Assembly (NCBI GenBank): GCA_040830765.1
Contig: JBFOMH010000017.1
Location: forward strand, 32,001 to 96,000
Source of the DNA: Puniceicoccaceae bacterium
Lineage (GTDB): Bacteria; Verrucomicrobiota; Verrucomicrobiia; Opitutales; Oceanipulchritudinaceae
Reading direction: 5' to 3'
DNA: 64,000 nucleotides
A program made the position numbers and the translations under genes. The notes under the pieces are model-generated. The model was not told the origin of the DNA, did not search any database, and saw only the letters and a program-made list of their open reading frames with translations. Shown here piece after piece: positions 5,609 to 22,391 of this stretch; the first letter of the stretch is position 1; every line of letters begins with the position of its first letter.

Positions 5609-5827
5609 ATTACATACCTGAAAAAGACCAGTTCCCTGATTAATTGAGAAATCCAGATGGCTGTGAGATACTGGAAAGTGGGAAATCATCATCACCCCTT
5701 ACATTCAGTCATTCCAAATCTCTTAGAGAATTTTGAATTACTTGCATTTATGAAGAGTGTACTTATTTCTCTTCCCTGAAACAGAACTTCGAAGTCCTAC
5801 TATAAAACAGTCGGATATACGTGGGCG

Positions 5828-6328
5828 ATGATTGGGCTAAAAAGAGGAACATTAAAGTTGCTTCCCTATGATAAGCATTGGGAGAAAGAATATTTGTCCG
5901 AAGCAGCACGATTGGAATCAAACTTGGAAAATAACATTCTGCGAATTGCTCATATCGGAAGTACATCTATTCCAGGAATACGTTCTAAGCCCGTGATTGA
6001 TATCGCAATGGAGGTTGCAGACCTATCGCAAACACGAAAATTATTAGAAAAACTTGGATATGAGTATCTGGGGGATCGAAGATCCGACGGTGACCATTTT
6101 TTCGCGAAAGGTCCTGACGAAAATAGAACCCATTACATGCATGTTTCAACTATTGAGAATTCCCGATTCGACAAGTATGTAAGATTTCGAGATTCGCTGC
6201 GAAACAACAAAGATTTAGCACAAAAGTATGACCAACTTAAATCCGACCTAATGAACAAATATAAACAAGATCGAGAAAGATATACGGCAGCGAAATCAAA
6301 TTTTATTAATGAGGTTATTAGATCATGA
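5828..6328 (+). CDS. GrpB family (UPF0157) nucleotidyltransferase-fold protein
   Basis: IAHIGSTSIPG..SKPVIDI and FRDSLR...Y..LK motifs. Confidence 0.88.
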   Translation: MIGLKRGTLKLLPYDKHWEKEYLSEAARLESNLENNILRIAHIGSTSIPGIRSKPVIDIAMEVADLSQTRKLLEKLGYEYLGDRRSDGDHFFAKGPDENRTHYMHVSTIENSRFDKYVRFRDSLRNNKDLAQKYDQLKSDLMNKYKQDRERYTAAKSNFINEVIRS

Positions 6329-6384
6329 TCCAACCAGTCGATGTAGGTGTCGTACCTCAGCTTTAACTTTGTCCATCAAACACT

Positions 6385-6864
6385 ATGTTACCCGAAGTAC
6401 CTGAAGAAAAGAACTTAGTTCTAGTACAGGAGAGCCAGAAAGAATTCTGGCTTTATCCTCGGGCAGCTGAGAATTGGATAAAAATGCAAAAAACCGCGAG
6501 AGAAGAAGGAATCGTTCTAAAGATTATCTCAGCTTATCGAAGCATTGAGCGTCAGGAAAAGATCGTGGAGGCTAAAAGAAAAAAGGGGTTATCGGAGGAA
6601 GAGATTTTTCGATTCAGCGCACCACCTGGCTTCAGTGAACACCATTCTGGACGAGCAATAGACATTACTACTGATGGAGTGACTCCTCTGGAAGAAGAGT
6701 TTGAAAAAACCAAAGCGTTTAAGTGGCTAACGCAAAACGCTAGCAGGTTCTCATTTAGGATGAGCTATCCCAGAAAAAATGAATACGGTTTGGGGTACGA
6801 ACCTTGGCATTGGGTATACTTTGAATTAACACAACCAGTTACCGAAAATGACGATCCCTATTGA
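6385..6864 (+). CDS. M15B (VanY-like) D-Ala-D-Ala carboxypeptidase
   Basis: SAYRS, SAPPGFSEHHSGRAID, YEPWHW. Confidence 0.88.
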   Translation: MLPEVPEEKNLVLVQESQKEFWLYPRAAENWIKMQKTAREEGIVLKIISAYRSIERQEKIVEAKRKKGLSEEEIFRFSAPPGFSEHHSGRAIDITTDGVTPLEEEFEKTKAFKWLTQNASRFSFRMSYPRKNEYGLGYEPWHWVYFELTQPVTENDDPY

Positions 6865-6899
6865 AGTCGACCGGCACTTTAGACTTAACGGTATCTAAA

Positions 6900-7523
6900 A
6901 TGAATCAGAGAGATCTATCCATTGAAATCACCAACGCACTGATCGCTTCAGCTGCGTTTGAAACAGTAGAATTAAGGGGAAGTCTTAACGGCGGAAAGAT
7001 CGATTCATTCTCCGACATAGATATCGAGGTTTCGAACAACCAGCGAGCCGCGACAGACAACGTCCATGTAGCCATAGAGGTCTTAAGGGAAAGGAAAAAG
7101 ATATTACTAATCGATTGGGCTACATCACTTCTTCCGGATCAAAGCATAGCGTCGATCTACTTGTCAGGATATTCGGTTTTCTGGAACGTGGACATATCGT
7201 GTAGAGCCAATCAACACGTCAAGGCTCCGGAAAATGCAATCATACAAGAGAAGAATGGTCATATATTGAAGCTCTGGATACTAAATGCTAAGTACGTTCT
7301 AAGATCCAATACTGAAAAATGCACCTTAGACGGACTTTTTAGGAGATTATTCCCTGAAGAAAATTTATCCGGCACCCAACAAGCGAAGCTAATTCGGATT
7401 TGGAGAAGTATAGATCGCGAAGCAATAGATTCAGAGCTGGTCGATCAATGCGAAGATCTGATCGAAGAACATGGCTGGAATGAATGCTTCGATAACCAGG
7501 CGAGCGAGGCTACTGCCTATTGA
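6900..7523 (+). CDS. Nucleotidyltransferase-domain protein
   Basis: LRGSL...DSFSDIDI motif; ATG 6900 chosen as start. Confidence 0.65.
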   Translation: MNQRDLSIEITNALIASAAFETVELRGSLNGGKIDSFSDIDIEVSNNQRAATDNVHVAIEVLRERKKILLIDWATSLLPDQSIASIYLSGYSVFWNVDISCRANQHVKAPENAIIQEKNGHILKLWILNAKYVLRSNTEKCTLDGLFRRLFPEENLSGTQQAKLIRIWRSIDREAIDSELVDQCEDLIEEHGWNECFDNQASEATAY

Positions 7524-7539
7524 CGGTATGCTACAAAAG

Positions 7540-8208
7540 ATGAACAGTGAAAAGATCTCCGAAGAGTATTGGAGTAAGATTCCGCACGAGAACCTTCCTC
7601 ATTTTGCAAGTAAGGAAAAGACCCAGGCCGAAGTAGCGTTTCTCAAAAAGTATTTACCTGTAAACTCGCGTGTTCTTGATCTAGGCTGCGGGTGGGGGCG
7701 AGTTGCTGCTGCCTTAGCGTACGAGGGTTATTCTGTAAGAGGGATTGATTTGTCACCACATCTTGTGGAACTCGCTCGCAAAAATGCTCCTCAAGAATTA
7801 AAGATTTCATACTCGACTGGCAGTCTGTTAGACATCCCTTGCCGCGACAGCTCCTTCGATTGTGTTGTTTGCCTGTGGGGAACATTTAATCACTTGCTTT
7901 CTCCTGATGAACAACTCACAGGATTGAACGAGATCTTTCGCGTGTTGTGCTTAGGTGGAGTCGCCATCCTTGAGATGAGCAACGGAGAATCGAAAGCAAA
8001 TAGAATTAATCGCCAGAAACTGGGGTTTGGTCATCAGAACCGTGTATTCGAATTACGTTACAAGCCTAAGAGTCCACCCAATACGATTTACATTCACGAT
8101 AGAAAGACCCTTGATGGGCTAGGGCATGCTTCTGATTTCTTAGACTATTCCGTAGGATTCAAAACTATCTTTGGAAAGAGAAGGCTTGTAGCTTTTCTCA
8201 AGAAATAG
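7540..8208 (+). CDS. Class I SAM-dependent methyltransferase
   Basis: VLDLGCGWGR, GIDLS, SFDCVVC. Confidence 0.85.
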   Translation: MNSEKISEEYWSKIPHENLPHFASKEKTQAEVAFLKKYLPVNSRVLDLGCGWGRVAAALAYEGYSVRGIDLSPHLVELARKNAPQELKISYSTGSLLDIPCRDSSFDCVVCLWGTFNHLLSPDEQLTGLNEIFRVLCLGGVAILEMSNGESKANRINRQKLGFGHQNRVFELRYKPKSPPNTIYIHDRKTLDGLGHASDFLDYSVGFKTIFGKRRLVAFLKK

Positions 8209-8264
8209 GTATAACCAGTCGCTGATGTCGCTCGTATCGGCCCTTCAGTTTTAACGTCAATAAA

Positions 8265-8918
8265 ATGAATAGCCCCTTAAGCAGTTCACTTGAAAACATG
8301 TATTGGATTGGTGGAACCAGTGGTTCCGCGAAATCCACCATCGCACGCCGAATAGCTGCAGAACATGACATGCTCTTATATTCCACAGATGAGGTTATGG
8401 GAAATCATGCGAATCGTTGTACTAGGGAGGAATGCCCATTACTGGAAGAATTCAAGCAGATGACGATGGATGAGCGGTGGGCAACTCGCACACCGGAAGC
8501 CATGTTCGAAACCTTCCAATGGTTTCATGGTGAAGGATTTAATCTCATAATCGAAGATTTGCTCGAATTACCCAGTGACCGGAAAGTAATCGTTGAGGGA
8601 TTTCGATTGCTTCCAAATCTCGTGAAGCCCCTGCTCAAAAAAACATGCCAGGCAGTGTGGCTTATTTCTACTCCGGAATTCCGATTCAAGGCGTTCAATG
8701 AACGGGGCACGCTACGCGATATCCCGGACAAGACATCAAATCCTGAGAAAGCGCTTCAGAACCACCTGGAGCGGGAGTCTCTGTTTATGCAGCATCTCAT
8801 TGAAGAGACGAGGACTGAAGGTGTCACGGCCTTAACGGTTGATGGGAGTTTTTCAGAAGAAGAGTTACTGAAAAGAGTTTCTACACATTTTGAAATAGGA
8901 CAACCAAACAAAGCTTAA
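8265..8918 (+). CDS. P-loop kinase-like protein
   Basis: WIGGTSGSAKST and IVEG motifs. Confidence 0.7.
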   Translation: MNSPLSSSLENMYWIGGTSGSAKSTIARRIAAEHDMLLYSTDEVMGNHANRCTREECPLLEEFKQMTMDERWATRTPEAMFETFQWFHGEGFNLIIEDLLELPSDRKVIVEGFRLLPNLVKPLLKKTCQAVWLISTPEFRFKAFNERGTLRDIPDKTSNPEKALQNHLERESLFMQHLIEETRTEGVTALTVDGSFSEEELLKRVSTHFEIGQPNKA

Positions 8919-8980
8919 ACAAAACCACGCCGGTCATCCGATAGTGTCATGTCCAACATTAACTTACTGAATAATAATCA

Positions 8981-9451
8981 ATGAAAAAGGAGTATCCGAC
9001 ATTAATTCACGAAAGAGTTGCTCTTGCCAGGGAGGGAAAGAACAAAACTGTAATCGCCAGAGTTCCTTCTGGCTGGGTTGTTCTGGGTGATGATCAAAGA
9101 TTAAAAGGTTATTCTCTGCTTCTCTCTGATCCCGTCGCCGACAATTTGAACGACTTGGGTGAAGAAGAAAGAAAGCAGTTTATGTGGGATATGTCCGCCG
9201 TTGGGGATTCTCTGATGACTGTGTTAAATCCATCGATTATCAATTATTCAATTTTAGGCAACTTGGACAGGGCGTTGCATGTTCACATTCATCCCCGATA
9301 TGATGAAGAGGAGGAGGATAAGAGAAGAAACACTCCACTGGTATATTGGTGGCTGAAAATGCCAGTTATACCTTTTGATTTCGAAAGAGACTCAAGTTTA
9401 ATGAAGCAGATCAAGGAAGAGCTTTCGAAGAGAACAACGATTATTTCATGA
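8981..9451 (+). CDS. HIT family hydrolase
   Basis: LGN...ALHVHIHPRY histidine triad. Confidence 0.85.
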   Translation: MKKEYPTLIHERVALAREGKNKTVIARVPSGWVVLGDDQRLKGYSLLLSDPVADNLNDLGEEERKQFMWDMSAVGDSLMTVLNPSIINYSILGNLDRALHVHIHPRYDEEEEDKRRNTPLVYWWLKMPVIPFDFERDSSLMKQIKEELSKRTTIIS

Positions 9452-9978
9452 AAATATTGGATAAAGTTGGCTTGTTTATAGCATCTGGCGGCAGTGGTGA
9501 TCCCAACTCGCCAAAAATAAAATGCTTGTCGAATGTTGCAGTGCAGAAAGGTATTGAATACATCCTCCCTGATTGGCGTTACTTGCCCTGTGACCCAGAG
9601 CCTAGATTGAAAGACTTAGAGGAGAGAACTGATCAGAAATTTGAAAGTCTAGTATTAGCTGGATCGAGCTTAGGCGGCTATGTTTGTTCCGTTTACGCAC
9701 ATAAGAGAAAAGTTGATGGACTATTCCTCCTAACCCCTATCCTCGGTAAAGACGGCTACAAGGATGACTCTCCAAAACCGATGTCCGAAGATACGGTTAT
9801 AATAGCAGCCTCAGAGGATGAATACACAAACGCCAAAGATGTAATCGCGTTTGCAAAAACAATTAATGCATCTCTGCACCTGCTATCGGGCAACCATTCT
9901 TTAGAGAATCATTCAGAATTCATAGCTCGTGAATTCGGTGCATTTATTGATAGAATTAAAAGCAGGAAAACCTTTTAA
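9448..9978 (+). CDS. Alpha/beta hydrolase
   Basis: GSSLGG nucleophile elbow and C-terminal GNH. Confidence 0.75.
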   Translation: MKILDKVGLFIASGGSGDPNSPKIKCLSNVAVQKGIEYILPDWRYLPCDPEPRLKDLEERTDQKFESLVLAGSSLGGYVCSVYAHKRKVDGLFLLTPILGKDGYKDDSPKPMSEDTVIIAASEDEYTNAKDVIAFAKTINASLHLLSGNHSLENHSEFIAREFGAFIDRIKSRKTF

Positions 9979-10156
9979 ATATAAATGAAGCCCCTCACTA
10001 AAGCTCTCTCAGGTTGATTTCTCGATTCAAGAACAAAGTGTAGTTATGCATTCGCGACAGAAAGACGGATTAGATCTTTAATTTTGTCGCCGATCTGCCA
10101 GAGTGATAACATGGGAACGGACCCCATAGTTAAGAACTCCAACAGAAAGGAAAATC

Positions 10157-14410: not shown

Positions 14411-15025
14411 ATGGACAACCTGACACCGGATACGGCAACCAAGATTCTCGACGCCGATTTTCAGAACATAGTGAAAAAAGTCGCGGGAGGGAAGACGCTT
14501 ACTGTTGCCGAGAGGGCACTGATTGAGGCACGGGCCTCCGGGAGTAATAACACAACGGCCTATGCCAAGACTGTTGTGGAATTATCTGAGGTACTGGGAG
14601 TAACCAGGCGGACGGTCGGCATGTGGCGCAAAATGCAGGGAGCACCAAAACCACTGTCCAACGGCGACCATGATGTTTCCGCATGGAGAGAGTTTGTCCG
14701 GTTAAACGGCCTGAAAGGCGGCAAGGAACTGGAGGGAGCCAACCATGAGGCCCTAAAGGCAAGGCGGCTACTTGTCGATATTGAGGAACGGGAACTTCGC
14801 CTGGCTATAAAGAGGGGAGACTACCTGCCCATGGAAGAGGTGAGACGGACTGTGATTGAGGGGATGGCACGGCTCTTCGCCATCTTACACAAACGACTCG
14901 AGGACGAATTGCCACCACTGTCCTGTGGAAAGGATGCAGTGGGTATCCGGGAGGAGAATGCCAAGGCTTTGGATGAGGCCCGGCAGGAGGCATATGAATT
15001 TTTCAGCGGATGGACCACAGCTTAA
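14411..15025 (+). CDS. Terminase small subunit (Nu1-like)
   Basis: HTH ELSEVLGVTRRTVGMWRK..GAP and coiled coil ELRLAIKRGDYLP; directly upstream of the large subunit. Confidence 0.8.
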   Translation: MDNLTPDTATKILDADFQNIVKKVAGGKTLTVAERALIEARASGSNNTTAYAKTVVELSEVLGVTRRTVGMWRKMQGAPKPLSNGDHDVSAWREFVRLNGLKGGKELEGANHEALKARRLLVDIEERELRLAIKRGDYLPMEEVRRTVIEGMARLFAILHKRLEDELPPLSCGKDAVGIREENAKALDEARQEAYEFFSGWTTA

Positions 15026-16818
15026 ATCCTGAAATTGCCGGCATGTTTGCCGAAGGGGTAAAACCTCCGGACAGGCGTCCTCCATGGCAGTGGGCTGAGG
15101 AGCATGTTACTTCCATCCCATATTCGCCTATGCCCGGACGGTTCCGCTCGGACAATTCACCGTGGGTTAGGGAGGTAATGGAGGCGATGGTGGATCCGCG
15201 GGTGAAAGTGGTGTCCATTATCGCATCTGTCCAATCCTCAAAGACGACCGCTCCGGAGCTGACCCTCTCTTACATCATATCCAACTTGCCCGGGCCCACC
15301 TTGTGGCTGGACCAGACTGACGAGGATGCGAAGGACCAGTCCGAGTCGCGCCTGCAAAAACTCTTCGAGGAATGTGAACCGGTTAAAAACTTGTATCCAA
15401 AAGACCGGCACAAAAGGAGAAACCATACTATCCACTTTGCCAATGGAATGACGCTCTGGATCCTTGGGGCACATAACAAAACCAATCTGCAACGCCGTTC
15501 CATTCGCTGGTTGATCGGTGATGAAACGTGGCGCTGGCCAACAGGACATATGGCTGAGGCGGAAGCCCGTGTAACTGCTTTCGGATGGCTGGGTAAATGC
15601 ATCTTCATGTCCCAGGGCGGTGAGGAAGATGATGATACGCATCGCAAATTTGAGACGACTGACATGCGCGAATGGACTTTCCAGTGTCCACATTGTGGAA
15701 AGCGTCAGCCCTTCGACTGGGATAATGTGGAGTGGTCCAAATCGGCAAGAACAGCGGAAGGGGATTGGGATTTCACTGAAGTGAGGAAAACCACTTCGCT
15801 TCGGTGTTGTGAGTGTAACCATTACTTTGCTGATTCGGATGCGACCCGCCGCCAGCTCAATGCCACGGGCAAGTTTGTGCGGACCAACCCGAAGGCATCT
15901 GAAGAGAATGTGGGATTTCATTGGAATGCCCTGTGCGCAATGTCGTGGGGGAAACTTGCGGAGATGTACCTTCGGGCCAAGGCAGCAGCAAGGCAGGGCG
16001 ACACATCCTTGTTGCAGCAGTTTTATCAGAAGCGACTCGCATTGCCCTGGAGGGAGTATGTTGAGGACTTCAAGGCGGATATTACCCGTAGCAACTATTG
16101 CATGGGGGATCCATGGCCGGATGAGGGGTATCTGACGGCAAAAGGCACGGTTGTGGATTCACCCACCGATGGTGCCACGGTTGTCCCGCTTCGATTCCTT
16201 TCAGTGGATGTGCAGATGGATCACTTCTGGTTGGTGGTCCGTGCCTGGAGTGCCAGCGGATCCTCAAGGCTAATGTGGTGCGAGCGTGCCCTCACATGGG
16301 AGGACGTTGAGCGGGTACAGGAACGCTTTGGTGTCCACGGCAGCTTGGTATTTGTGGATGCAGGATACAACAGCTATGAGGTATACCGCCACTGTGCCCG
16401 AAAGGGCTGGACTGCCCTAATGGGGGATAACCGTCCAACTTTCACCCACAAGGTAGGAAAACAAAGGGTTCAACGCTTCTACTCTCCGGTGCGGAAGGTC
16501 TATGTAGCCAATGGACAGGTTTGCCGGATGCACTATTGGAGCAATCTGAACATGAAGGATTCGCTCGCCAGGCTGCGGAGGAATCTGGAAGGCGGACCTA
16601 CATGGGAGATCCCCGAAGACATCCCCGAAGAGTACCTGCTTCATATGGACTCAGAGCACCGGATTAAGAGGGGCGGTAAATGGTTCTGGGATCAGATCGG
16701 CAAACGCCCGAACCACATGTTTGATGCGGAGTGCGAGCAGGTTGTCGGAGCCCATATGCTTAAGATTATTGGGCGCGAAAGTGTGCCTCAATCAGGAGAA
16801 TCCGATCCCGAAGGATAA
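15010..16818 (+). CDS. Terminase large subunit, lambda GpA family
   Basis: SVQSSKT Walker A, LIGDE Walker B, CPHCG, GFHWNAL, VDVQ, NHMFDAE. Confidence 0.93.
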   Translation: MDHSLNPEIAGMFAEGVKPPDRRPPWQWAEEHVTSIPYSPMPGRFRSDNSPWVREVMEAMVDPRVKVVSIIASVQSSKTTAPELTLSYIISNLPGPTLWLDQTDEDAKDQSESRLQKLFEECEPVKNLYPKDRHKRRNHTIHFANGMTLWILGAHNKTNLQRRSIRWLIGDETWRWPTGHMAEAEARVTAFGWLGKCIFMSQGGEEDDDTHRKFETTDMREWTFQCPHCGKRQPFDWDNVEWSKSARTAEGDWDFTEVRKTTSLRCCECNHYFADSDATRRQLNATGKFVRTNPKASEENVGFHWNALCAMSWGKLAEMYLRAKAAARQGDTSLLQQFYQKRLALPWREYVEDFKADITRSNYCMGDPWPDEGYLTAKGTVVDSPTDGATVVPLRFLSVDVQMDHFWLVVRAWSASGSSRLMWCERALTWEDVERVQERFGVHGSLVFVDAGYNSYEVYRHCARKGWTALMGDNRPTFTHKVGKQRVQRFYSPVRKVYVANGQVCRMHYWSNLNMKDSLARLRRNLEGGPTWEIPEDIPEEYLLHMDSEHRIKRGGKWFWDQIGKRPNHMFDAECEQVVGAHMLKIIGRESVPQSGESDPEG

Positions 16819-17596: not shown

Positions 17597-17851
17597 ATGG
17601 CGACAATTGATTATTCCATAGGTTTTACCCAGACGGAGGTAGAGGAGATCCTCACCGCTCAAAAGGCTGAGTTGAAAAAGACATTGGCCGCTTACGCCAA
17701 TGATGGATCCAGTGTGACCAAACGCCGTATTGATGAAATTCATGAGATCATCTCTGCCTGCCAGAAGGCCCTACAGAAGCTCGCTCCCGATACTTATGGT
17801 AAGGGGTTGAAGGTATCCCGGACGGGATTTGTCGACCACATGCAGTTGTAG
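17597..17851 (+). CDS. Head-completion protein (gpW-position)
   Basis: 84-aa ORF between terminase and portal; GSSVTKRRIDEI resembles the gpW hairpin. Confidence 0.6.
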   Translation: MATIDYSIGFTQTEVEEILTAQKAELKKTLAAYANDGSSVTKRRIDEIHEIISACQKALQKLAPDTYGKGLKVSRTGFVDHMQL

Positions 17852-17857
17852 GCATGA

Positions 17858-17863
17858 TTGACA
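17858..17863 (+). promoter_or_regulatory. TTGACA-N13-GTG motif
   Basis: 13 nt before in-frame GTG 17877. Confidence 0.65.
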
Positions 17864-17876
17864 TGTGCCTGGAGCC

Positions 17877-19322
17877 GTGAAGATCCTCCAAAGCATTGGC
17901 AAAGTTCTAATGGGTTCATCCTATGAGGCGGCAAATCCATCAATTCGCCGTTCAAGGGTGCCTGGTGCCGCGCCGTCCGATGCAAGAAGGGAGTTGACGG
18001 CCCATACCCGCCGCGAACTGGTACGCAAAAGCAGATACCTGAACAAGAACAGTGGTTTCTCTCGCGAGGTCGTGGGGGACATGGCGATTTATTCGACCGG
18101 AGATGGAATCCGTCCCCAGGCACAAACAGCGGATCCAGCATGGAACAGGCAGGCGGAGGAATTTTTCAAACGGTGGTCCGCACGTCCCGAAGTGACCAAC
18201 CGGTTCTCATTCGAGGAATGCCAGAATCTGGTTTGCCGGGGAATCGATGTGGACGGGGAATATTTTGTATTGAAAATTCGCGACAAGTTCGGACGTGCCC
18301 GGATACAGTTGGTGGAATCCCACAGGATAGGATCGGCTTCTGAGGATAGAAAGGTGATCGATGGTATTGAATTTGATGCGATAGGAGCGCCGTTTGCTTA
18401 TCATCTTATCCAGGACAATGGAAAGCCTCGGAAGGTGTTCGCCAATGCGGTGATGCATGTCTTTGAACCGGAGTTTGCAAGTGGTGCGCGAAGTCACCCG
18501 ACTTTGCAGCATTCCATCAACCACATTCTCGATGAAATGGAGATGCTTGCGTTGGAAAAGCATGCGGTGAAGGATAATCAGGATGTTTCACGGATCATTA
18601 AGCGCGAAAGCGGAACTTTGGAGGATGATGGAGATTTTAGAGTATCGCCGGATACAGGTGAAGCAGCTGACCAGAGTGATCCGTCCGCTATCCAGAGAAT
18701 CACAGGAGGCAAGGTCCTGGCATTGAAGCCGGGAGAGTCCATGGACAGTTTTCAGTCGAACAGGCCAAGCTCCATGTTCACCGGATTTCTGGAGCACTTG
18801 AAGCGGGACAGCAGCGCCGGGGTACTCCCCTATGAATTTGTACTGGATTCATCCAGTGTGGGTGGTGCCGGAGTACGCTTGATTGTAGCGAAGGCAGACC
18901 GTCGCTTTTCCTACCGGCAACTAATCCTCATCCAGCGATTCCTCAAACCAACATGGGGCTGGGTGATTGGTGATGCCATTGATAGGGGAGAGTTGGAACC
19001 GATGAAGGGTTGGAACAAGGTGACCTGGGTTACTCCACGCCGCATCACGGTCGATGCAGGCCGGGAGGCAGAATCCCACCGGAAAGATGTGGAGATGGGC
19101 CTACTCACATTTTCGGATCATTTCTCAGAGATTGGAATGGATTTTCGCGAAGAAATTGAGCGTAGGGCACAGGATTCAAGAGACATATTGGATATGGCAA
19201 ACCGATATGGTGTACCCGTGGATATGCTCTATCGCCCAAGTGGGACGAAAAGTACTCCTGCTCAGGAACCTTTGACATCGGACGGGGGCAGTGCCCCACA
19301 AAGATCCGAAGAAGAAAGCTGA
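17877..19322 (+). CDS. Portal protein, lambda family
   Basis: SYEAA..ELVRKSRYL..GDGIRPQ..DGEYF..DGIEFD..G.P.AY..GVLPYE. Start placed at GTG 17877 using the upstream motif. Confidence 0.92.
   Translation: MKILQSIGKVLMGSSYEAANPSIRRSRVPGAAPSDARRELTAHTRRELVRKSRYLNKNSGFSREVVGDMAIYSTGDGIRPQAQTADPAWNRQAEEFFKRWSARPEVTNRFSFEECQNLVCRGIDVDGEYFVLKIRDKFGRARIQLVESHRIGSASEDRKVIDGIEFDAIGAPFAYHLIQDNGKPRKVFANAVMHVFEPEFASGARSHPTLQHSINHILDEMEMLALEKHAVKDNQDVSRIIKRESGTLEDDGDFRVSPDTGEAADQSDPSAIQRITGGKVLALKPGESMDSFQSNRPSSMFTGFLEHLKRDSSAGVLPYEFVLDSSSVGGAGVRLIVAKADRRFSYRQLILIQRFLKPTWGWVIGDAIDRGELEPMKGWNKVTWVTPRRITVDAGREAESHRKDVEMGLLTFSDHFSEIGMDFREEIERRAQDSRDILDMANRYGVPVDMLYRPSGTKSTPAQEPLTSDGGSAPQRSEEES
19272..19277 (+). 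promoter_or_regulatory. TTGACA-N13-GTG motif
   Basis: 13 nt before GTG 19291, inside the portal 3' end. Confidence 0.65.
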
Positions 19323-19944
19323 ATACAACCGCCGCTACTACCAAGAAAACCGGGAGCGGCTTAAGGAACATGCACGTAAATATTACCACGATAATATTGA
19401 TGCTCAAAAAATTGTTAGAAAACAATGGCGAGAGGCCAACAAAGACAAAGTTAAAGCTTCAAACAAAGCATACCAGCGAGAGCAAAAGCAAAAAATACGA
19501 GAATATCAACAGGGTCGGAAGAATGATCCTGAGGTCATTGCAAAACGCCGAAATCAAAAGCGTCGATACTATCAACAGCGAATTCAAAGAGATCCACAAT
19601 GGCGGGTAGTTCGTGCTCTTCGTCTTCGACTTTGGACTGCGCTTAAGCAGCGTAAAATAGACAAGTCAGAATCCAGCCTCGAACTTGTTGGATGCGAAAT
19701 CAGTGCCCTCGTCAGACACATTGAAAACCTGTTTCAGCCAGGAATGTCTTGGGAAAATTACGGATCAAAAGGCTGGCATATTGACCACATTACTCCCTGC
19801 GCTGCCTTCGATCTTAGTGATCCAGCACAACAGAAGAAATGTTTCCATTACACGAACCTGCAACCTCTATGGGCGAGAGACAATATAGTTAAAGGGCATA
19901 GTCTTCCCACATCGCTTTCTGAAGCAGTCGTCCCACCCGGTTGA
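19291..19944 (+). CDS. HNH endonuclease with a basic helical N-terminus
   Basis: GMSWENYG..WHIDHITPC..CFHYTNLQPLWARDNIVK. Confidence 0.85.
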   Translation: MPHKDPKKKAEYNRRYYQENRERLKEHARKYYHDNIDAQKIVRKQWREANKDKVKASNKAYQREQKQKIREYQQGRKNDPEVIAKRRNQKRRYYQQRIQRDPQWRVVRALRLRLWTALKQRKIDKSESSLELVGCEISALVRHIENLFQPGMSWENYGSKGWHIDHITPCAAFDLSDPAQQKKCFHYTNLQPLWARDNIVKGHSLPTSLSEAVVPPG

Positions 19945-19946
19945 CA
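19941..19946 (+). promoter_or_regulatory. TTGACA motif upstream of the tRNA
   Basis: 19 nt before the tRNA 5' end at 19966. Confidence 0.6.
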
Positions 19947-19965
19947 GAGTCCAGTTTCAACAAAC

Positions 19966-20035
19966 ACGAGGGAGAAAAGGATTCGGTCGGGCTCATAACC
20001 CGGCAACGCAGGTTCGATTCCTGCCCCTCGTCCCA
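19966..20035 (+). tRNA. Atypical tRNA-Met(CAT), initiator-like anticodon arm, shortened D arm
   Basis: Acceptor ACGAGGG/CCCTCGT, anticodon arm TCGGG-CTCATAA-CCCGG, T arm GCAGG-TTCGATT-CCTGC, encoded CCA; 70 nt. Confidence 0.8.
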
Positions 20036-20044
20036 ATTATAGCC

Positions 20045-20866
20045 ATGAGACTAGCACACATCACCAATACAATGTATCGGCAGCCCTGGAATATCACCAC
20101 CGATGGCTGGCTGTCGTTGCATCAGATTGTACAAAGCAGGTTGTTTAACGATGCCGTGAATCTGGATTTTTCAGATTTCGTAAATCCCCGCCCGGATGGT
20201 GAAATTGACGGTAATGGTATCGCTCATATCCATGTAATGGGTACTTTGGGGAAACACTTAAGCCAGATTGAGCGTTCCTGCGGCAACACCGGATATGAGC
20301 AAATAGAGGAGGAGATTCGTATAGCAAACGAAGACGGTGCAAAGGGATTCCTGTTTCATATCAATTCTCCGGGAGGAATGGCTGCCGGTAATATTGAGAT
20401 TTCCCGGATGCTTTCAGAAATCAAGAAACCAAAGGCTGTTTGGGTGGATGAACTGGCAGCCTCGGCAGCATATGCCATAGCCAGCGGTGCCGACATTATT
20501 GCGATGGCGCCATCGGCACAGGTCGGGAGCATAGGTACTATTCTTCCATTGGTTGATGTGTCCGGTGCATGGGAGCAGAGGGGATGGAAGCCCGCTTACA
20601 TCACCCATACCGGAGGAGATCTAAAGGATGCCACATGGCCTCCATCATTCACTGATGAGCACCGTGCCCACCTTCAGGAAATGGTGGACGATTATTTCGG
20701 ACAGTTTAAGGAACACGTCTTACAACACAGGAACATGGGACCGGATGCCATGCGCGGACAGACATTCATAGGTCGCAAGGCGAAGGAGGCGAATTTGGTG
20801 GACCATGTGGGCAGTCTGGAAGACACCTACGCGGAGCTCCTCAAGCGGGTTGACAAGGCAAAGTAG
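20045..20866 (+). CDS. S49 prohead protease (lambda gpC-like)
   Basis: INSPGG, AASAAYAIAS, VGSIG. Confidence 0.92.
   Translation: MRLAHITNTMYRQPWNITTDGWLSLHQIVQSRLFNDAVNLDFSDFVNPRPDGEIDGNGIAHIHVMGTLGKHLSQIERSCGNTGYEQIEEEIRIANEDGAKGFLFHINSPGGMAAGNIEISRMLSEIKKPKAVWVDELAASAAYAIASGADIIAMAPSAQVGSIGTILPLVDVSGAWEQRGWKPAYITHTGGDLKDATWPPSFTDEHRAHLQEMVDDYFGQFKEHVLQHRNMGPDAMRGQTFIGRKAKEANLVDHVGSLEDTYAELLKRVDKAK
20850..20855 (+). promoter_or_regulatory. TTGACA-N13-ATG motif
   Basis: 13 nt before ATG 20869, inside the protease 3' end. Confidence 0.7.
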
Positions 20867-20868
20867 GC

Positions 20869-21381
20869 ATGGATTTTCCAAAAGCAGAAGAACTCAACAC
20901 ACTGGCACAGGCACGCGATGCATTTGCTTCCCTTCTCTCAGAACATGAAGCCTCCCGGGATAATCTTTCCCAGGCTTCAGAGGCTCTTGATAAGGCAAAT
21001 GCTGAACTGGATGCGGTGCGTGACGACCTGAAGGCGGCCAATGAAATGCTCGATGAGGCGAATACCAATATTGGTTCCCTGACCGGGAAGTTGAAAGAAT
21101 CCCAGGATAAGGAGCAGACTCTCAGTAATGAATTGAAAGTGGCCAAGGAGTTGAACCAGTCGGTTGAACAGAAGGTTTCCAAGCTGGAAGCAGATGCAAA
21201 GTCTGCTGAGGCTAAAGCGGCTGAAATCTGTGCTTCCGTTGGTGTGGAGCCTGCGCAGGTTACTCCGGGTGGGGAGCCTAAACAGCAGTCCCTGATTGAG
21301 CAATTGAAGGAGATCAAGAATCCTGCTGAACAAATGACTTTCTTTCGCAAGCACCGCGACGAGATCATTAAGGGGCATTAA
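20869..21381 (+). CDS. Coiled-coil scaffold-like protein
   Basis: Long heptad coiled coil between protease and capsid. Confidence 0.65.
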   Translation: MDFPKAEELNTLAQARDAFASLLSEHEASRDNLSQASEALDKANAELDAVRDDLKAANEMLDEANTNIGSLTGKLKESQDKEQTLSNELKVAKELNQSVEQKVSKLEADAKSAEAKAAEICASVGVEPAQVTPGGEPKQQSLIEQLKEIKNPAEQMTFFRKHRDEIIKGH

Positions 21382-21410: not shown

Positions 21411-21442
21411 GCGCTGTGGTTTACGGGCCATGGCGCTTTTTT
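21411..21442 (+). terminator. Intrinsic terminator
   Basis: GCGCTGTGGT-ttacgg-GCCATGGCGC stem (with G:U pairs) followed by TTTTTT. Confidence 0.65.
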
Positions 21443-21472: not shown

Positions 21473-21485
21473 CGCCATGCAGTGC

Positions 21486-22391
21486 ATGGCCAATAACCTT
21501 ACCGAAGTACAAGACCTGCGCATCGCAGACAAGTTTCTGGAAGCCTTTGTTGCTGAACTGACCGCCCTGCGTGCCTTCTCCACTGATTTTACCCCTGAAT
21601 TTGCCAAGCGTGGCAAGACCGTGAATGTTCCGGTTATCGGGGCCGCGAACTCTTCCTATGACTTCGCCGGCAGCTATTCCGCAAATGCGGACAGCGATGT
21701 CCAGGGAATCCCGGTTGTGCTGGATAAGCATAAAGTACAGTCGCTGCACCTGACTGATAAGGAAGTGAGCGAATCCGCATGGGTATCTCTAGAACGCCTC
21801 GCAATATCCAAGGCCCGACAGTTAGCACAGGATGTCCTCACCGACATCTGGAGTCTTGTGACCATCGAAAATTATGGTCCGGCTTCGATTCCTGGACTTG
21901 CGGCCACTGACTTTAGTGCTGATTCAGTCCTCGCAGTCCGACAGGCTTGTGCCGCTGCAAAGATGCCGGCCACTGATCGTGCACTTATCCTGGATAGTGC
22001 CTATTACTCCAATCTGCTTGGGGATGCCAAGATTTCCAATAGCTATCTTAGTCAGATGAGTGCACCATCGCTCATGGAGGCGAAGATTCCAAGGGTCTAT
22101 GGATTCGATATCTACGAAACCACCATTATGCCGGACAATGCGGAGAACCTGGTCGGTTTTGCAGCCCATCCTCGGGGAATTGCAGTAGCGATGCGCTACC
22201 TTCAGCCAATCGACAGCTCAGCCTATCTGGATGCAGGACCGGTCACTGACCAGTCCACTGGTATCACCCTCGGGTACCGAAAGTACTACGATACCGATTC
22301 AGGTAAGATGATCGCCGCATTTGAGTGTGTCTACGGATACCGCAAGGCAATCGCCGATGGTATCAAGCGTATCGAAGATACCGGGGCTTAA
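21486..22391 (+). CDS. Major capsid protein
   Basis: MANNL..RGKTVNVP..VVLDKHK..IPRVYGFDIYE..VYGY; size and position fit. Confidence 0.85.
   Translation: MANNLTEVQDLRIADKFLEAFVAELTALRAFSTDFTPEFAKRGKTVNVPVIGAANSSYDFAGSYSANADSDVQGIPVVLDKHKVQSLHLTDKEVSESAWVSLERLAISKARQLAQDVLTDIWSLVTIENYGPASIPGLAATDFSADSVLAVRQACAAAKMPATDRALILDSAYYSNLLGDAKISNSYLSQMSAPSLMEAKIPRVYGFDIYETTIMPDNAENLVGFAAHPRGIAVAMRYLQPIDSSAYLDAGPVTDQSTGITLGYRKYYDTDSGKMIAAFECVYGYRKAIADGIKRIEDTGA

Follow-up and report, generated by a model that had tools for sequence, protein, structure and literature searches.

A conserved tRNA(CAU) gene with a reduced D arm in the head operon of a verrucomicrobial prophage

Reduced transfer RNA (tRNA) designs are textbook curiosities of animal mitochondria, and tRNA genes are also carried by many tailed phages. 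Mammalian mitochondrial type I tRNA-Ser(UGA/UCN), a tRNA with a one-base connector and a sixth anticodon-stem pair, is a working molecule according to the accounts given in PMC12125218 and PMC10412605. For phage-encoded tRNAs, the functions put forward in PMC10264068 include codon supply, sustained translation and escape from tRNA-targeting defences. A third relevant arrangement is RNase P punctuation, in which, in mitochondria and in bacterial tRNA-mRNA co-transcripts, a tRNA shape stands between coding regions with almost no spacer. Here we describe a 70-nt tRNA(CAU) gene with a minimal D arm inside the head-morphogenesis operon of a prophage, found in a 64,000-nt stretch of contig JBFOMH010000017.1 (hereafter the window) from a marine verrucomicrobial host of the Puniceicoccaceae (genome 4.0 Mb, 56% G+C). 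It is a new structural variant within phage-encoded tRNAs, very probably a functional RNA, and may serve as an initiator tRNA.

ARAGORN called a single tRNA in the window, a tRNA-Met with anticodon CAT at tRNA position 29 (19994-19996), and the Rfam tRNA family RF00005 matched positions 19966-20032 (39.9 bits against a gathering score of 29; E = 5.9e-05 over the whole window), being the sole Rfam family above threshold in the 64 kb. These calls bear out a sequence-only reading of the same DNA that had placed a 70-nt tRNA(CAT) at 19966-20035; the structural details it listed (intact acceptor, anticodon and T arms, encoded CCA, a 14-nt gap between acceptor and anticodon stems, three G:C pairs, A1:U72 and C73) each match the sequence, and the protease ATG that it put 9 nt after the CCA is at 20045. 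The ARAGORN fold runs from a one-base connector through a D stem of 3 bp and its GG-containing loop of 5 nt to one further base, an anticodon stem of 6 bp and a variable region of 3 nt, the 14 nt between acceptor and anticodon stems being AGAAAAGGATTCGG. The anticodon stem (UCGGG/CCCGG) has its three G:C pairs adjoining the loop CUCAUAA, and the T arm reads GCAGG-UUCGAUU-CCUGC. A 7-nt anticodon loop with U33 and a purine at 37, together with a T loop of the form UUCRANY, is present in the window copy and in all of its nearest relatives (clade A, below). The canonical D arm (U8, a two-base connector, a 3-4-bp stem and a 7-11-nt loop with G18G19) is absent, the GG alone being retained, and the cmscan alignment to RF00005 puts four deletions into the D arm.

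All three features by which PMC12125218 defines the mitochondrial type I architecture are present in the ARAGORN fold of the window tRNA. As mitochondrial type I tRNA-Ser(UGA) works, the reduced design is not in itself a sign of inactivity. The two share the one-base connector and the sixth anticodon-stem pair, but this is a likeness of design only: the two are not related by descent, they have different anticodons and amino acids, and the phage tRNA keeps G18G19, the T-loop consensus and a G+C-rich body. With other phage-encoded tRNAs it shares residence in a tailed phage, a CAU anticodon, an encoded CCA and co-transcription with phage genes, and each of the functions proposed for that group could apply to it as a hypothesis. 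Instead of belonging to a tRNA cluster, it stands singly between the portal and head protease genes, and its family differs from known phage tRNAs in a D arm of 2-3 bp with a 5-nt loop, in the one-base connector, in the 6-bp anticodon stem and, in some relatives, in the overlap of the portal stop codon with the tRNA. Exact-phrase searching of the literature, a weak test, turned up no account of a phage tRNA whose D arm is reduced. Systems of RNase P punctuation resemble the locus in placing a tRNA shape between coding regions with almost no spacer; they are defined by demonstrated cleavage, which for the phage tRNA is a prediction, and pure tRNA-like signals differ in that the anticodon loop of the phage tRNA is conserved.

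To find relatives, homologues of the adjacent protease were searched for in viral contigs, metagenome contigs, species genomes and 401 genomes of the order; blastn of positions 19000-21000 against GenBank phages gave no match. The search yielded 19 related (pro)phage loci of Opitutales (protease identity 66-92%), 14 of which have an ARAGORN tRNA(CAU) directly upstream of the S49 protease (13 distinct sequences), while none of 12 more distant loci (protease identity 37-50%) has a tRNA at that site. The S49 protease is the gene just 3' of the tRNA at every homologous locus. A covariance model built on the family found copies scoring at least 94 bits only at protease-linked sites (five copies in 4 of 37 host-family genomes); of 20 loci picked up in viral contigs by a T-arm pattern scan, only the protease-linked ones are family members. 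Ten distinct 70-nt sequences, including that of the window, make up clade A, and the small D arm is common to all of them. The other three distinct sequences (L006/L007/L126, L012 and L125; 68-73 nt) make up the sister clade B and have a different compact D hairpin. Scores against RF00005 were 37.3 bits for L011 and 32.2 bits for L012. The reduced design (one-base connector, 2-3-bp D stem, 5-nt GG loop, 26:44 pair and 3-nt variable region) is specific to this lineage.

Minimum free energy folds of single sequences missed the cloverleaf and gave weak z-scores (-1.3 to -1.9), as is usual for tRNAs, and covariation was used instead. In a MAFFT alignment of 12 sequences (13 after L125 was added), 96.0% of the 252 cloverleaf cells were paired, against 42-54% in controls with slid partners. 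Two-sided changes were seen in 7 of 21 pairs with 12 sequences (2.3 in shuffles; 0 of 500 shuffles reached 7) and in 8 of 21 with 13 sequences. The extra pair 26:44 is G:C in eight sequences and C:G in two; the D stem keeps G10:C25 and A11:U24, its third pair being open in 5 of 13. Selection was assessed in clade A pairs whose proteases are 77-83% identical. In these the tRNA is identical at 56-67 of 70 positions, compared with 32-47% identity at fourfold-degenerate sites of the adjacent protease and with 7-13 of 19 positions in the 19-nt leader (comparable in 17 pairs). Among the ten distinct clade A sequences, no position varies in the anticodon loop (0/7) or the CCA (0/3) and one does in the T loop (1/7), while 7 of 12 positions of the anticodon stem vary with pairing kept; the D-loop GG and the T-loop consensus are retained. 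This pattern of variation is the one expected of a decoding tRNA rather than of a bare RNase P site. Covariation and conservation above that of synonymous sites mark the small D arm as a selected lineage trait. The suggestion that intact pairing reflects selection thus holds among homologues, whereas the label "aberrant", in the sense of decay, does not fit an arm shared by all ten clade A sequences. The evidence marks a whole tRNA under constraint in clade A and fits neither a relic nor a mere RNase P handle.

The host has three CAU tRNAs of its own: an initiator-type tRNA (genome G000, C21:45476-45552) with A11:U24, the anticodon stem UCAGG/CCUGA, U1:A72 and C73; an elongator tRNA-Met (C28) with G1·U72, C11:G24 and A73; and a tRNA resembling tRNA-Ile2 (C5) with C4:G69, C5:G68 and A73. 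Phage tRNA and host initiator have in common C73, A11:U24, a CAU anticodon in the loop CUCAUAA, a weak Watson-Crick or wobble pair at 1:72 and, apart from pair 29:41 (A:U in the host, G:C in the phage), the anticodon stem. They differ in the D arm (11 nt in the phage tRNA, 17 nt in the host initiator), in acceptor pairs 1-3, which are inverted (A-C-G versus U-G-C), in the T loop (UUCGAUU versus UUCAAAU) and in the variable region (3-4 nt versus 5 nt). Across the family, G29:C41 and G30:C40 are present in 13/13 sequences and G31:C39 in 11/13, making the three G:C pairs complete in 11/13; C73 is found in 12/13, and 11:24 is A:U in 11/13, G:C in one and G·U in one. Of the initiator-like marks, the three G:C pairs pointed to in the sequence-only reading are present, as is A11:U24, and C73 is the initiator discriminator of the host order: in 29 Opitutales initiators (C21:45476-45552 and loci L076-L105), A72 and C73 occur in 29/29 and U1 in 28/29. 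The view, in the sequence-only reading, of A1:U72 as an archaeal or eukaryotic initiator state did not stand, as relatives have G·U (5) or G:C (3) and the host initiator itself is paired U1:A72; within clade A, position 1:72 is only ever A:U or G·U, both weak pairs.

In Escherichia coli the initiator has C1xA72, which is not a Watson-Crick pair, together with A73, and the window tRNA has neither (A1:U72, C73). The host initiator itself fails this rule, which is therefore the wrong yardstick here. The Opitutales initiator as a group departs from it, with paired U1:A72, C73 and A29:U41 replacing the first of the three G:C pairs. The family covariance model ranks initiators best among host tRNAs (44-51 bits across the host family); in the window's own genome it scores the initiator at 44.1, a tRNA-Gly at 39.5 and the elongator tRNA-Met at 37.3 bits. 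One formyltransferase-type gene is present in the host genome. The pairs C4:G69 and C5:G68, which are determinants for TilS in E. coli, are replaced in the phage tRNA by A4:U69 and G5:C68, and their absence makes a reading as lysidine-modified tRNA-Ile2 unlikely.

The explanation we favour is a genuine, selected phage tRNA(CAU) gene within the head-morphogenesis operon. Because of its position inside the operon, the tRNA would have to be transcribed within a longer RNA and then cut out. Excision would proceed by RNase P and 3' trimming, and the CAU anticodon would direct charging with methionine. Initiator-type use would then enlarge the initiator pool available to the late messages of the phage, which have no Shine-Dalgarno sites and perhaps little or no leader, and excision would simultaneously part the portal mRNA from the protease-scaffold mRNA. 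We give this reading, a methionine-charged, decoding, initiator-type phage tRNA, a probability of roughly 0.5, counting it as correct should the tRNA prove to be methionine-charged and to decode; its use as an initiator is the less certain part. That the tRNA is charged and decodes seems slightly better than an even bet, while its acting specifically as an initiator is a tentative proposal that falls somewhat short of even odds. Three functions had been suggested in the sequence-only reading: an unusual initiator for leaderless mRNAs, a decoy for tRNA-cleaving defences and a processing signal for the protease mRNA. Among these the initiator is the best supported and the decoy is without direct support; processing is a likely side effect and, as a principal function, the chief rival.

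A hexamer, TTGACA, recurs before genes of this prophage. At least nine prophage genes have it 13-16 nt upstream of their start codons, and between 11 and 30 kb of the window it is never on the opposite strand; the arrangement TTGACA-N12-16-ATG occurs 31 times in the 4-Mb genome, 9 of them inside the prophage. The arrangement is repeated in relatives, and no comparable peak is seen in host genes. All close relatives compared keep the box upstream of the tRNA or the protease, and in the tRNA-less loci L003 and L004 the box is followed by 16 nt and then by the protease ATG. A Shine-Dalgarno-like motif is absent at most of the prophage gene starts listed, and the spacer between CCA and protease ATG is likewise without one in the relatives, where it measures 9-12 nt. 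No sigma-70 -10 partner lies 16-18 nt from TTGACA at any instance examined, and a sigma-70 promoter was rejected on that ground; a hairpin between box and leader was dropped as a candidate, being present in some loci only. According to PMC9031893, more initiator tRNA (formylmethionyl-tRNA, fMet-tRNA) strongly enhances the translation of leaderless mRNAs, so that an extra initiator tRNA would be sensible if the box gives rise to leaderless messages; PMC2268962 reports that re-initiation in coupled genes needs initiator tRNA properties. Were the box a promoter of leaderless messages, the protease-scaffold transcript would open with the tRNA. A bolder extension, which we regard as speculative and decidedly unlikely, is a semi-private initiation system, in which the TTGACA box would produce late messages with little or no leader and the phage's own minimised initiator tRNA, by enlarging the initiator pool, would favour these over Shine-Dalgarno-led translation in the host. 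The tRNA would follow a plan familiar elsewhere from mitochondrial type I tRNA and would be transcribed from one such box at the 5' end of the protease-scaffold message; shrinkage of the D arm would then be an adaptation (for example, escape from a host tRNA-directed enzyme with use by methionyl-tRNA synthetase and the P site preserved) rather than tolerated erosion.

Several observations weigh against the initiator reading or against a decoding tRNA altogether. The window copy has A8 in place of U8, a base that is near-universal in tRNAs. It has C2:G71 and G3:C70 where both host Met tRNAs have G2:C71 and C3:G70, and pairs 2:71 and 3:70 matter for formylation in E. coli. Its T loop is closer to that of the host elongator tRNA-Met, and raw identity is tied (49/70 to the host initiator and 49/70 to the elongator), so that the call between initiator and elongator rests on position-specific marks only. 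In clade B the anticodon loop is NUCAUCC, with C38 and with C37 in place of a purine, position 1:72 is a strong G1:C72 pair, CCA is encoded in one of the three distinct sequences, and L006 falls under the Rfam tRNA threshold. Locus L013 holds a degenerate tRNA-like sequence, which scores 19.6 bits with the family model and has no Rfam match; its anticodon stem contains two C·C mismatches and its T loop is odd, while its D arm is canonical (4-bp stem, 8-nt loop). Loci L003 and L004 have no tRNA, and L063 and L067 have a different structured RNA of about 105 nt at the tRNA site. The tRNA is thus missing from these four loci and is dispensable. An ancestral tRNA with later loss (L003, L004) or replacement is the parsimonious history, though not a proven one; the protease tree has a basal polytomy and leaves the placement of L003 relative to clade A unsettled. 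The element at L063 and L067 (positions 2380-2500 in each) consists of four consecutive perfect hairpins; a GAAA loop caps one of them, and a U-rich run comes after the last. It is nearly identical in the two loci although their proteases are 76% identical, its fold z-score is -3.8 (L067, the copy folded), and no Rfam family matches either copy.

The strongest rival holds that the tRNA is a cis-acting punctuation signal: an acceptor and T-arm shape recognised by RNase P would be what is selected, its cleavage would uncouple the portal mRNA from the protease-scaffold mRNA, and decoding would be incidental. The protease message would be left with a leader of at most 9 nt, and in several relatives the portal mRNA would lose its stop codon. 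Excision of the tRNA would necessarily split the portal from the protease messages. The portal stop codon UGA forms tRNA nucleotides 8-10 in L002 and L031 and lies within the D arm in L007, and excision at these loci would strip the portal mRNA of it. The site between portal end and protease ATG is fixed in 14/14 loci, variation is lowest in the acceptor stem, T arm and CCA, L013 keeps CCA and a fully paired, though different, acceptor stem despite its damaged anticodon stem, L063 and L067 have another conserved structured RNA at this very site, and C37 C38 is tolerated in clade B. Yet an anticodon arm would be superfluous in a processing signal, and in clade A its loop is invariant and its stem and the 26:44 pair are compensated; the D-loop GG and the T-loop consensus are retained as well, and L003 and L004 manage without any element. 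We consider punctuation unlikely as the principal function, and it is compatible with the favoured tRNA gene rather than exclusive of it. One contig of RNA library X2 runs from before 17800 to 21239 and spans the tRNA (depth 873.5). Assembled contigs cannot reveal RNA ends, and this one, which could come from DNA or from unprocessed transcript, shows neither processing nor its absence; gaps in the low-depth libraries X3-X5 are meaningless.

An improbable alternative is a spare or decoy initiator directed at tRNA-cutting host defences such as VapC-type PIN-domain toxins, a copy whose altered body or loop would make it resistant and keep translation going once host tRNA-fMet is cleaved, or which would soak up the nuclease. 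PMC10264068 discusses phage tRNAs as counters to VapC, PrrC and colicin-type tRNases by way of anticodon-loop changes, the host genome contains nine PIN-domain open reading frames (ORFs), and the clade B loop departs from that of the host initiator at positions 32, 37 and 38. PIN domains are, however, common and unspecific evidence, tRNA-Met is not a known target of any tRNase of this host, and the loop of the window copy and of all clade A is identical to the CUCAUAA of the host initiator, which leaves no room for loop-based escape. About as improbable is an elongator supplement, that is, a tRNA-Met for internal AUG codons, or a tRNA-Ile2 for AUA after lysidine modification of C34, that would compensate for phage codon usage. 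AUA makes up 7.4 per 1000 codons in 30 prophage ORFs and 4.1 in 728 long host ORFs (1.8-fold), and AUG 24.2 and 19.4, respectively (1.25-fold); a paired 1:72 is an EF-Tu requirement, the host elongator tRNA-Met likewise has a weak pair there (G1·U72) and the T loop nearer to the phage one, and raw identity does not separate it from the initiator. Against it stand A11:U24 and the three G:C pairs, which are initiator marks where the host elongator has C11:G24 and a different anticodon stem, and C73, the host initiator discriminator, where the host elongator and Ile2-like tRNAs have A73; for the Ile2 variant, pairs 4:69 and 5:68 disagree with those of the host Ile2-like tRNA. A decaying, functionless relic of a once normal phage tRNA, to which the normal D arm of L013 (and so a possibly canonical ancestor), loss or replacement in 4 of 19 relatives and A8 might point, has a negligible probability given 84-96% identity of the tRNA against 32-47% at the neighbouring fourfold-degenerate sites, compensatory changes in 7-8 of 21 pairs, the small D arm of all ten clade A sequences and saturated synonymous sites in the protease that argue against very recent horizontal copies of one sequence, and for clade A decay is excluded.

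The favoured tRNA gene and the features around it are collected in Table 1. One further candidate, an N-terminal extension of the protease through the tRNA, was rejected: the frame is open through the tRNA, yet it has no ATG, GTG or TTG between the stop codon at 19886-19888 and 20045, and the tRNA region has an RNA-like substitution pattern.

Table 1. Features of the prophage head operon and of the tRNA gene within it, in window coordinates.
Feature	Position	Strand	Evidence or remark
TTGACA boxes in the window	11081, 13669, 14391, 17577, 19272, 19941, 20850, 21467, 24027, 28970	+	
TTGACA box in the window	39677	-	
Large terminase	15010-16818		PHROGs/Pfam
Portal protein (lambda family)	17865-19322	+	PHROG 21, E 1.4e-44; PF05136
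Endonuclease VII/HNH-like ORF	19291-19944	+	PHROG 1035, E 5.5e-08
TTGACA box before the tRNA	19941-19946	+	19 nt upstream of tRNA 5' end
5' leader, box to tRNA (19 nt)	19947-19965	+	Poorly conserved
tRNA(CAU) gene, 70 nt	19966-20035	+	ARAGORN, Rfam RF00005, covariation, purifying selection
Acceptor stem ACGAGGG/CCCTCGT	19966-19972 / 20025-20031	+	A1:U72 paired
One-base connector A8	19973	+	
D arm	19974-19984	+	3-bp stem, 5-nt loop with GG
Anticodon CAT	19994-19996	+	
Discriminator C (C73)	20032	+	
Encoded CCA	20033-20035	+	
Spacer, CCA to protease ATG (9 nt)	20036-20044	+	ATTATAGCC; no Shine-Dalgarno-like motif
Head maturation protease, Peptidase_S49	20045-20866	+	PHROG 53, E 4.1e-56; PF01343, E 1.3e-25
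Scaffold-like ORF	20869-21381		PHROGs/Pfam
Major capsid protein	21477-22391		PHROGs/Pfam

The HNH-like ORF sits between the portal gene and the TTGACA box and has no Pfam family at a threshold of 1e-4. It is missing from the closest relatives, L028 and L029, and a comparison of ORF ends across loci identified its last codons as the old 3' tail of the portal gene read in another frame; it is probably a homing-endonuclease insertion, and its presence in the window but not in L028 or L029 makes the junction between portal and tRNA an insertion hot spot. Downstream, a terminator-like hairpin with a T run lies 3' of the scaffold-like gene (21411-21436), and over the 3' end of that gene (21210-21372) library X2 has short contigs with depths above 10,000, against 873 for the flanking contig. 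The capsid gene may start at ATG 21486, 13 nt past a TTGACA box, instead of at 21477, and a tape measure protein gene follows further along the operon (PHROGs, Pfam). In the early region of the prophage, a block of lower G+C content (43%; 5800-10000) carries GrpB, VanY-like D-Ala-D-Ala carboxypeptidase, methyltransferase and hydrolase genes that look like cargo (moron) genes.

The loci returned by the T-arm pattern scan outside the family were set aside as ordinary tRNAs of other phages or as tRNA-like elements (L032, L046 and L048). These three elements have a GCGAGGG acceptor and a GCAGG T arm, a likeness due in part to the construction of the search pattern, and they have aberrant bodies without CCA and lie among small ORFs rather than in a head operon; in L032 the loop is UCAUAA, the D arm is almost absent and a TTGACA box lies upstream. 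In a genome from the host family, eight tRNA genes form a phage-like cluster that includes another short tRNA-Met (73 nt; L110:1501-1573, G030:C105). Its D stem has 4 bp and its GG loop 4 nt, and its sequence is not related to that of the window tRNA family. Phages of these hosts may commonly have compact D arms.

A tRNA of a bacterial virus that has a minimal D arm and is under purifying selection would mean that a plan of this kind can arise and work in normal bacterial translation. It would offer a small natural scaffold for studying what methionyl-tRNA synthetase (MetRS), the formylase, RNase P and the ribosomal P site require of a tRNA. The overlap with the portal stop codon in relatives, together with a protease start 9 nt away, makes the locus a compact, naturally occurring instance of tRNA punctuation within a phage operon. 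If the tRNA is an initiator tied to box-led late genes without Shine-Dalgarno sites, it would link the frequency of tRNA-Met genes in phages with the favouring of leaderless translation.

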